Below the pieces are notes generated by a model. It searched no databases. It was not told the origin of the DNA and saw nothing but the letters and a program-made list of their open reading frames with translations. Position numbers and translations under genes: made by a program. DNA of 43,771 bases from Reclinomonas americana ATCC 50394 (taxonomy: Eukaryota), in assembly GCA_048213135.1 (NCBI GenBank), contig PS015148.1:110982-154752 (forward strand). Direction: 5' to 3'. Of the stretch, positions 21,097 to 24,000 are shown piece after piece; the first letter of the stretch is position 1, and every line of letters begins with the position of its first letter.

Positions 21097-24000
21097 TCAG
21101 CTCTCCCCACCATGAGCAACCACTGCTGCATCGGCTGCCCATTCACCAGCCTCCGCAGGCGGGGCGGCAAGGACTTCGTGCTCCACGGCAGCGGCCACTT
21201 CTTCCTCAACAGCAGCGATCACTTCTTGCTCCACGGCAGCACCTACTTCTTGCTCCACAGCAGCGACCACTTCGTGCTCCACAGCAGCGACCACTTCTTG
21301 CACCACAGCTGGGACCACTTCTTGCTCCACAGCAGCAACCACTTCTTGCTCAGCAGCAGCTACCACTTCGTGCTCCACGGCAGCGACGGCCTCTCGACTA
21401 CCCTCGTCATCATCCACATCCTCCACGGCAATCTCCTCCGCAATCACATCCTCCTCGACGTCGCCATCACCGCTGACAGCGCGCTCGAGCTCCACCGCCC
21501 CCACCGCTTCCGCCTCCGCCGCCCGCATCACGGCCGCCATGGCCACAGCATCGACGGGCGGCGTGAACGCCTGGTCGATCTCCTCCTGTGCCAGCTCCTC
21601 CTCCACCTCGGCCAGCGTGGAGTTGTCGGTTCCGTTCTCGCTCGAGGCCACAGCGGCGGCGGCGGCAGCGAGTTGCGGCAACAGCGAACCCATGGCCGAC
21701 GAGCCATCCCAGCTGATGGGCCACGACGACGGAAGCGCAGATCGCGGCGCCGCGTGATGCGACGAGGTGGCAGTCGTGGTGGTGGTGGTGCTGGTCGCAG
21801 TGGTGGCAGCAGTCGCGGCGGCAGTTGCCGCTGCGGCCATGGTGGCGGCGGCGGTCCGTGCTGCCGAGGTCGGCGAGAACGACATTACACTCCAGCTGTC
21901 CGACGAGTACGAATCAATGTCTTCCATGTCGTCGCCACCGGTGCTTCCACGCCGCGCGAGCGGCCGCGGTGGCAGGAGTGGCTGGAGGCGAAGTGCACTC
22001 GGTGAGGCGTGTGGAGACCCAGTTGATCGTGTCGTTGTGGTCGTGGTGGTCGTCGTGCTGCTACCTCCGTTGCTGCTGGTCGTGGTGGTGGTGGTTGACG
22101 TGGTCGTGGGAGCGGTGGCGACAGCCGCTGAGGCCACTCCAATCATTGTCTCCACAGTCTGGTGCGCCTCTGGTGCGCCTGCTGCTGCGGCTGCAGATGG
22201 CTGCTGGTACAGCTCGTCAAAGTCGTCTGAGGTGGCGGCCGCAATGTGCATGCGAGGAAGAAATGGCGGCAATCTGTGACGGCACAAAAGTCAGTCAACC
22301 TGTCAACGTTGTCAGCACTTCTCCCCTTTAAGACGCACGCTGCCATGGATGGACTGAGCGCCGCTGCTGCAGATCGCGGTGACTGACGCAGCGGTGGCGA
22401 CGAGTGCTGCACAGGTTCCCAGCGGATACGCTGCTGCGGCCGCGGCGGTGGCTGTGCCTCCACCGAGGCCAGCGATGGCCACGAATCGAGAGACAGTGCG
22501 TCGGCCAGCAGTCGCTCCGCCGTGGAGCCACTGCCGCCGGTAGCGACTGGTGACGACAGCTGGCATTGCATCTTCAGCGCTTCGGAGGTCTGGCAGTGAG
22601 CGGCCATGCGGCAGCCAGGTGATCCTTCCAGGGTGTTGAAACAGCATGTCCACTGCGCAAGTCGACGAGTGAGACAGGAAGAGAAAGAATTGAGAGAGCG
22701 AGAACGATCCACGCACGTGCTGCAGGGCGGCCGATAGATGTAGAGAGGAGGCATGAAAGAGAGCAGAGTTAGCAGGCACGCAGAGACTTCAGTTTCCAGA
22801 AAAGAGACACTCACCCCCTGCGAGAGAAGAAAACAGGTCAGTCAGCCAGCATGATACGGATCACAAAGAGAGAATCACAAACCATTACAAACTAGTTTAC
22901 GGGGAGGAAAACACCAGCATTGCGATTAGTGAATGACAAACAATGAGGACGAAAGAATGACGTGAACGTACATCCTGCGCAAAACAAAGAGTCAGCATCC
23001 ACACCAGCTTTTGACTAAATACAGCACAACGAAACTCCAGAGTGGAATCGGCAACCGTGTCTATGATTCGCGCGCGCCGATGTCCACTTGCGACAGCGCA
23101 AGCACTGCCATTCCTGCCACAAATAAACTAGATTCAGCACACATATGTCGCAACGTTGCGTGCAAGGACAAGCACTCAAAAAACCATGTCGGCTCCCGCT
23201 CCACCCCACGCCATGACACGCGGCTGCAAATGGCAACCAAACATGTCGTGTGTGAGCAAAACGGGCACGCACTCCTCTAACACTAGGGTGCGCACGTACC
23301 GACGGGCCACTGGGCTCCTCACTGCTCTTGGCCACATGATGATGGTGATGATGGTGATGATGCACGTGGTGGTGATGCTGCTGCTGCCCGTCACCGCCAG
23401 GAGACGGCAGTGTCTGGTGCGTATCGGAGCCGGCGGCATGTAGCATCTCCCGCACGGCCCGCATGTCGTCCACCGACGCCCTCCGCAAATAAAAGTCCTC
23501 AGCAGTGGGCGTAGTTGCCGATTTGCCTGATGTGGGCGTCGTGGCTGCGCACCCAGTACTACCGCCTACGCTAGCGACAGCAGCCGCTGCTGTCGCCTCC
23601 GTGCTGTTTCCCCCGTCAGTCGTCTTATTCATGACGGCGGCCACGTCAATGTTCAGCCTCGCCGGCGCCACCACTAACTCTTGCACAGCGCCCGGCAGAG
23701 AAAATAGCTGCGCAATCGGTGGCGGAGGTGGCGCAGAGGAAGAAGTCACAGTCGTCGTCGCGGTCGCGGGGTCGGTGGTTATCGCCAGTGGTTTCCTGCA
23801 ACCGTCGGTGGTGAGTCACCTGCCACCATCTACGGCAATAAGAGAGTCAAGCGCAACGTCTTGTACCCGGCGGCTTTCGTGGAGGGCGTGCGCGTGTTGG
23901 CCAACTGCAACTGCTTCCGCTCCACGACGGCCAGTGCGCGCTCGTTTTGCACCGCTCGCTCGCGCATCAGCGACACGGTCTTTTCCAGGCGGTCCAGCCG

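Follow-up and report, generated by a model that had tools for sequence, protein, structure and literature searches.

A candidate series of four micro-exons completing a CHORD/Btk-like zinc module in Reclinomonas americana

Internal exons of only a few nucleotides (nt) have been described in several eukaryotic lineages. In Coprinopsis cinerea, a fungus with short introns, long reads identified 97 exons of at most 3 nt in 89 gene models (13 measuring 1 nt, 57 measuring 2 nt and 27 measuring 3 nt), and an internal exon no longer than 15 nt is present in ~9% of gene models (PMC12230235). In plants, 1-nt exons as well as an adjacent pair of 5 and 12 nt in rice have been reported with confirmation by reverse transcription polymerase chain reaction (PMC8831610), and in Drosophila, micro-exon lengths in multiples of three are enriched in coding sequence (PMC8042270). 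In this study, we analyzed a 43,771-nt stretch of DNA from Reclinomonas americana ATCC 50394 (contig PS015148.1, positions 110,982 to 154,752; hereafter the window, within which all positions are numbered), where the original prediction, made from sequence, placed four consecutive micro-exons of 3, 9, 3 and 3 nt at the core of a Btk-type zinc motif in a minus-strand gene.

Three zinc-binding designs serve as points of comparison for the protein that these exons would complete. In BTK, the zinc ligands are His143 and Cys154/155/165, corresponding to H-x10-CC-x9-C (PMC3836457). In CHORDII of Rar1, two zinc ions are held by C159, C164, C178, H181, C196, C197, C213 and H218, with H181, C196, C197 and C213 forming one lobe and C159, C164, C178 and H218 the other (PMC2935968). 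The hallmark of the CW domain, finally, is a set of seven conserved residues, four of them Cys and three Trp (PMC9043364).

The interval at issue, positions 22653-23035, spans 383 nt of the minus strand and divides exactly as had been predicted into five GT-AG units of 61, 80, 65, 95 and 64 nt. The units are separated by GAT, TTTGTAATG, GGG and CAC, all junctions fall in phase 0 without a stop codon, and a branch-like motif could be located in every one of the five units, also in agreement with the prediction. The features are given below from 5′ to 3′ along the gene, with splice scores from a position-weight model (next paragraph) and with percentages defined as the share of pairs scoring as high among the 27,844 GT..AG pairs that the window contains at lengths of 50-130 nt.

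23036..23113, minus strand: upstream exon, 78 nt, with the first four putative zinc ligands (C-x2-C-x13-C-x2-H), ending His-Ser-Gly on a complete Gly codon
22975..23035, minus strand: unit 1, 61 nt, donor GTTTCG, CTGAC 17 nt from the 3′ end, acceptor GCGCAG; score 18.4, matched by 0.9% of pairs
22972..22974, minus strand: candidate micro-exon 1, GAT (Asp); acceptor 10.0, next donor GTACGT 3.7
22892..22971, minus strand: unit 2, 80 nt, the weakest, donor GTACGT, CTAAT 34 nt from the 3′ end, acceptor AACTAG; score 4.6, matched by 34% of pairs
22883..22891, minus strand: candidate micro-exon 2, TTTGTAATG (Phe-Val-Met), giving an aromatic residue at His+4; weak acceptor −2.9, good next donor GTTTGT 7.8
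22818..22882, minus strand: unit 3, 65 nt, donor GTTTGT, CTGAC at 20/24 nt, pyrimidine tract, acceptor TCGCAG; score 29.1, matched by 0.02% of pairs
22815..22817, minus strand: candidate micro-exon 3, GGG (Gly); acceptor 11.7, donor GTGAGT 9.8, branch 9.6
22720..22814, minus strand: unit 4, 95 nt, donor GTGAGT, CTAAC 49 nt before the 3′ end, an extended pyrimidine stretch free of AG, acceptor CTGCAG; score 14.6, matched by 2.8% of pairs
22717..22719, minus strand: candidate micro-exon 4, CAC (His); acceptor 3.5, next donor GTGCGT 7.0
22653..22716, minus strand: unit 5, 64 nt, donor GTGCGT, CTCAC 17 nt from the 3′ end, acceptor GCGCAG; score 19.8, matched by 0.6% of pairs
22339..22652, minus strand: downstream exon, 314 nt, beginning Trp-Thr-Cys-Cys and contributing putative ligands five to eight (CC-x9-C-x4-H); next comes a 65-nt intron at 22274-22338

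The position-weight model covers donor, acceptor and branch and was derived from 16 introns, with the five units in question left out. These training introns were selected by joining open reading frames (ORFs), by eye and, in a kinesin gene of the window, by fit to conserved motifs; they measure 57-126 nt, mostly 57-97 nt and in 14 cases 57-83 nt, and their CTRAY motif, where present, lies 11-25 nt from the 3′ end. Units 1, 3 and 5 closely fit the training introns in both length and branch placement, and four of the five units score 14.6-29.1, which places them in the top 0.02-2.8% of pairs; leave-one-out scores for the training introns themselves run from 2.8 to 28.3. Measured against the micro-exon class (internal exons of at most 15 nt), the four candidates have canonical sites and intron-sized flanks, namely GT-AG borders in all five units and lengths of 61-95 nt, with the acceptor of unit 2 being weak. 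The outer donor GTTTCG (23035) is rated low by the model, and similar GTTGCG donors occur at 24636, 34170 and 34010, one of which belongs to the training set. This unusual donor type recurs on the minus strand beside the common GTGAGT, GTACGT and GTGCGT, and in the kinesin gene it is backed by joined exons that fit conserved motor motifs.

When parses of the interval are enumerated with the outer sites fixed and the protein ignored, the predicted five-intron parse (summed score 86.6) ranks first of 604 in the pruned set and second of 1680 in the unpruned set, while the 383 nt taken as a single intron score 11.6. Of these 1680 parses, 1136 shift the frame, 189 meet a stop codon, and 355 are open and in frame. 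As a control for chance, we shuffled the interior 500 times with dinucleotide composition preserved and with the outer donor and the final 45 nt left unchanged. In the shuffled sequences, the best parse scores 45.8 on average (sd 9.2, maximum 73.3), so that not one of them attains the 86.6-87.5 observed (z ~4.5), and in only 6 of 500 does the best parse have all internal exons open and in multiples of three, as is true of both top parses of the real sequence. The two strands of the window together have 85 composite sites, in which a good acceptor and a good donor enclose an exon of at most 9 nt, and 4 fall in the region compared with 0.37 expected per 383 nt (Poisson 5.5e-4), a count in which 3 of the 4 are variants of the single GGG site. 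When acceptor, donor and branch scores are combined, that GGG site comes out on top of the composite sites listed for the two strands of the window.

With the 18 nt included, the flanking exons yield a 58-residue module with ligands C4, C7, C21, H24, C35, C36, C46 and H51, that is, C-x2-C-x13-C-x2-H-x10-CC-x9-C-x4-H. The loop between His and Cys-Cys would be x4 without the micro-exons, x6 with GAT and GGG only, and x10 with all four. The prediction that the micro-exons supply the ligand spacing of the Btk motif was borne out, as H24, C35, C36 and C46 form H-x10-CC-x9-C, just as in BTK. Its companion claim, that Phe and Gly land where the motif needs them, likewise held: only 6 of the 1680 parses insert six residues, and the predicted one alone among these 6 puts an aromatic residue at His+4 and Gly at His+7. 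The downstream exon by itself gives a sub-threshold match to Pfam BTK (PF00779) at 15.4-18.1 bits (E 0.017-0.0026), the sole family match even at E ≤ 10; the match covers profile positions 11/12-28 of 30, with Trp at position 12, and ten positions would have to come from upstream. A lead from the Atlas concerns the nearest named cluster to this exon, where BTK is present in 13% of the members (score 0.89).

From the anatomy of the interval, the strength of its signals, its open frame and the spacing of its ligands, all of which are read directly from the DNA, we infer that micro-exons are probably real here; for the fuller proposal that all four (3, 9, 3 and 3 nt, phase 0) are present in the main mRNA, we put the chances at about even. 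On this proposal, the 383 nt would be five ordinary short spliceosomal introns in series, and the four tiny exons would contribute six residues (Asp, Phe-Val-Met, Gly and His) to the protein. In a small two-zinc module, these residues would form the loop that leads from the His to the Cys-Cys. The module would combine a C-terminal lobe of Btk ligand spacing with an overall ligand order of the CHORD type, and its host, a protein with RING-like and TRAF-zinc-finger-like parts, would carry it in its tail. Each short intron would be recognised as a unit (intron definition), and since a 3-nt exon cannot hold the complexes of the 3′ and 5′ sites together, neighbouring introns would presumably be removed one after another, with each removal step lengthening the exon beside the remaining intron. 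Pure intron definition and a codon-by-codon tuning of the zinc site, both put forward in the original prediction, are likewise conjectural. A more far-reaching version joins this predicted inclusion and splicing order to predicted zinc binding and function: five introns would have been gained within 18 coding nt of a zinc loop, splicing would be stepwise and obligatorily ordered, the protein would be a stand-alone Btk/CHORD hybrid without detectable relatives, and phase-0 skipping would shorten the loop codon by codon and could thereby switch zinc binding on or off. We regard this combination as less likely than not.

Several observations weigh against inclusion of all four micro-exons. Five introns within 18 coding nt are improbable a priori, and the 16 training introns were our own picks from candidates of 40-159 nt, sequence-derived like the units they are used to judge, with 7 of them coming from the host gene. 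The splice model is permissive: in a scan for five-unit chains, the region ranks first in the window (88.7), but chains elsewhere reach 82.3, 79.3, 78.0, 77.0 and 76.8, and chains of up to 16, 9 and 4 units arise elsewhere at thresholds of 4.5, 10 and 14, respectively; some of these rival chains combine real introns with false sites within exons. Scanning for chains of introns proved not discriminating as a test of significance and was replaced by the shuffles of the region itself. Intron-like tiling is thus unremarkable taken alone, and what carries the case is the combination of signal strength, reading frame and protein fit. Within the interval, the acceptor of unit 2 scores −2.9 and the whole unit 4.6, and the branch motifs of units 2 and 4 lie 34 and 49 nt from the 3′ end, compared with 11-25 nt in the training introns; in both units, the proposed acceptor is the first AG past the branch motif.

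The choice of ranking also matters. By mean score per intron, the five-intron parse falls to 75th of 1680, and three-intron parses lead, such as one with introns of 61, 154 and 162 nt that keeps GAT and GGG; the summed score is biased toward parses with many introns. GAT is retained in all five parses shown as best per intron. These rankings bear on the alternative that only some of the micro-exons are used, most likely as the 61/154/162 parse with its His-x6-Cys-Cys loop, or that the transcripts are a mixture of isoforms, which is possible because every subset of the micro-exons stays in frame. This parse has the second-best mean per intron (22.0), its weakest intron scores 18.4, and the two acceptors that it skips are the weak ones with the distant branch motifs. 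Its 154- and 162-nt introns, in turn, fall outside the 57-126 nt of the training introns (a set drawn, as noted, from 40-159-nt candidates), the strong donors after TTTGTAATG (7.8) and CAC (7.0) would be left idle, and His-x6-Cys-Cys fits neither the BTK nor the CHORD spacing as published. Partial use strikes us as fairly unlikely.

The top summed score in the enumeration (87.5) belongs to yet another arrangement, in which a 33-nt first internal exon (22942-22974) takes the place of GAT and is followed by a 50-nt intron and then by TTTGTAATG, GGG and CAC. This arrangement is open and in frame and would insert 16 residues. We consider it, or any comparable use of other internal exons, very unlikely: the 50-nt intron is shorter than the 57-nt minimum of the training introns, the GTACGT donor right after GAT is skipped, and the resulting His-x20-Cys-Cys loop matches no known relative.

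Another alternative dispenses with micro-exons altogether and treats the 383 nt as one intron, in which the internal sites would be cryptic or would mark intermediates of the recursive type, and the module would be some other zinc finger, for example of the CW type. Long introns do exist in the host gene, and by eye, Trp2, Trp10 and the Trp before Cys-Cys, together with C4, C7, C35 and C46, fit the CW pattern; without the micro-exons, the loop from the second to the third Cys is 21 residues, a length typical of CW domains. Such a single intron would rely on an outer donor and acceptor worth only 11.6, and its interior nevertheless outscores 500 of 500 shuffles. At the protein level, Pfam zf-CW (PF07496) has no match on either exon at E ≤ 10, with the halves being short and scored separately, and BTK remains the sole match. 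The CW pattern also leaves the C-x2-H and C-x4-H pairs unaccounted for, and the first Trp sits one residue nearer to Cys than is usual in CW domains. Moreover, Tandem Repeats Finder reports zero repeats in 22653-23035, unlike the two long introns nearby (550 and ~900 nt), which are packed with simple and tandem repeats. Taken together, we judge the single-intron alternative unlikely. A different idea, that the five units arose by a recent introner burst or tandem duplication, was rejected, as local scores between units are 8-14 (14 in one pair) compared with a mean of 7.6 (sd 1.6, maximum 13) for shuffled sequences.

The remaining points against inclusion of all four micro-exons concern the protein. 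The BTK score of 17.5-18.1 bits lies below the Pfam cut-off of 24 and was obtained on the contiguous downstream piece, with the first ten profile positions unscored. The Btk motif is described as always lying directly C-terminal to a PH domain, and Pfam PH was found neither in the upstream exon at 23318-23815 nor in any scanned ORF piece of the host gene. Neither exon matches Pfam CHORD (PF04968) at E ≤ 10, and the x4, x14 and x15 spacings given for Rar1 CHORDII are unmatched, the module having x2, x10 and x9 instead. The label Btk-type survives in part: the ligand spacing and the sole Pfam match agree with it, while the sub-threshold score, the PH domain not found and the four further ligands in CHORD order do not. 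On present sequence evidence, the module would be better named a CHORD/Btk-like two-zinc module that belongs to neither family. A pattern scan of all six frames detected no second copy or paralogue in the window.

Against 1.84 billion representatives, the module exon has no homologue, a further point against the full set, and its 2 matches, P0001 and P0002, bear it no true resemblance: they are long ORFs of perfect tandem repeats in which a weak match is summed over ~20 repeats, and which are probably translated satellite DNA. A word search of longer proteins yielded no candidate for the module exon, and a search of longer proteins with the TRAF-like ORF yielded 837 candidates, none at E ≤ 0.001. 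The Atlas offered no taxon lead. Phmmer searches of the PDB with each module exon gave one chance match (PUF4, E 8.4) for one exon and none for the other. Metagenome scans gave nothing for the module exon and, for the 107-residue coiled-coil exon at 23867-24189, a single 33-residue match at a contig end, which is uninformative. As even the exon encoding the P-loop of the kinesin in the window finds at most 57% identity, the lineage is thinly sampled, so these blanks say little and are not evidence against the gene.

The missing homologues also bear on the alternative that the gene is decaying or mis-assembled and that the pattern has no function. The 11 runs of N in the window, totalling 1104 bases, mark the assembly as a draft and are in keeping with this alternative, as are the protein searches without a homologue. 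No run of N lies between 16561 and 26115, however, the frame is open through all predicted exons, and eight of eight ligand positions are intact, and we consider decay or mis-assembly the least probable of the alternatives.

Beyond the module, the host gene was reconstructed from ORFs and exon joins, with an additional small exon proposed just upstream of the module.

21097..25592, minus strand: whole predicted gene, ~1030 codons, with predicted start and stop
23185..23223, minus strand: possible 39-nt exon, between introns of 76 nt (23224-23299) and 71 nt (23114-23184)

From 5′ to 3′, the gene opens with a RING-like Cys/His exon, after which come the first intron of 550 nt, TRAF/Sina-like zinc-finger exons, a coiled coil, a low-complexity exon, the possible 39-nt exon, the zinc module and a 391-codon low-complexity tail. 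The Cys/His pattern of the RING-like exon was seen by eye only, without a Pfam match, and the Pfam scores of the host-gene ORF pieces for zf-TRAF (20 bits, cut-off 27) and Sina_ZnF (21.1 bits, cut-off 32) are both sub-threshold; with no RING or zf-TRAF profile scoring above its cut-off, the protein was not assigned to the TRAF-type or RING E3 ligases. The introns flanking the 39-nt exon have modest leave-one-out splice scores (11.8 and 9.7), and as this exon is in phase 0 on both sides, it may be optional or skipped. Other introns predicted in the host gene measure 67, 75, 57, 71, 76, 71 and 65 nt, and those in neighbouring genes 60-126 nt. The first intron (24771-25320, minus strand) comprises 550 nt of GGA/GGT and CT simple repeats and contains three copies of a 34-35-nt element, two of them direct (24923-24956 and 25056-25089, 97% alike) and the third inverted (25125-25159, 100% complementary to 25057-25091). 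These copies may represent a small mobile element that forms hairpins, or else a feature of the assembly.

The window also contains other genes and possible exons on the minus strand. One of these genes (~32757-37386; Pfam Kinesin and FHA) encodes a kinesin that has an FHA domain; it is split by many short introns, has a best database identity of 57%, and carries 143-149-nt tandem repeats at 34478-35018 within an intron of ~900 nt; read by eye against known motifs, it required no independent micro-exon. An ORF for a WD40 beta-propeller (26514-27659) runs uninterrupted for 381 codons (Pfam WD40 2e-56, 7 repeats) and adjoins a gap of N at 26116-26241. Short stretches between a strong acceptor and a strong donor occur at 10475-10487 (13 nt), 15491-15499 (9 nt) and 17116-17124 (9 nt) and may be small exons of other genes, whereas a similar site at 13450-13458 was discarded as a false positive inside a WD40 repeat.

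If the four micro-exons are included as proposed, the locus would offer a natural substrate for studying how the spliceosome handles exons too short for both splice-site complexes and in what order introns are removed, and it would present an extreme local intron density that models of intron gain must explain. Gene predictors could drop the core of such a metal site. On the protein side, the Btk motif and CHORD would be connected, outside the settings in which they normally occur, by a small two-zinc module.

Compared with the Btk motif of Tec kinases and GAP1-family RasGAPs, the module shares H-x10-CC-x9-C, a Trp two residues before Cys-Cys and a Gly-Cys at the fourth ligand. It differs in having Ser in place of the usual Pro after His, in its sub-cut-off score, in the absence of a detected PH domain upstream, and in its host protein, which is RING/TRAF-like rather than a kinase or a GAP. 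Like the CHORD domains of Rar1, Chp1 and melusin, it has eight ligands in the order C, C, C, H, CC, C, H; of the seven spacings given for Rar1 CHORDII, four (x13, x2, CC and x4) recur in the module. The lobe scheme of CHORD, with His, Cys-Cys and Cys in the C-terminal lobe and three Cys plus the last His in the N-terminal lobe, likewise finds matching ligand sets in the module, but CHORD usually occurs as a tandem pair, whereas the module is present in a single copy.

On the splicing side, recursive splicing and stwintrons resemble this locus in placing an acceptor and a donor nearly back to back inside a larger interval that is removed stepwise. At recursive sites, however, the acceptor and donor abut and nothing is left in the mRNA, whereas here 3-9 nt would remain and be translated. 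The fungal and plant micro-exons share with the present candidates internal exons of at most 3 nt, canonical short introns, strong donors and a tendency to be overlooked by gene predictors. Those cases are RNA-verified, while the four here are predicted from DNA sequence. In the micro-exon literature as available to us, no report of four in series was found, with the proviso that supplementary tables may list such cases, and the largest published run found is two adjacent micro-exons, compared with four in a row within 383 nt here, three of them single codons. As candidates, the four micro-exons of Reclinomonas americana are an extreme variant of a known phenomenon.

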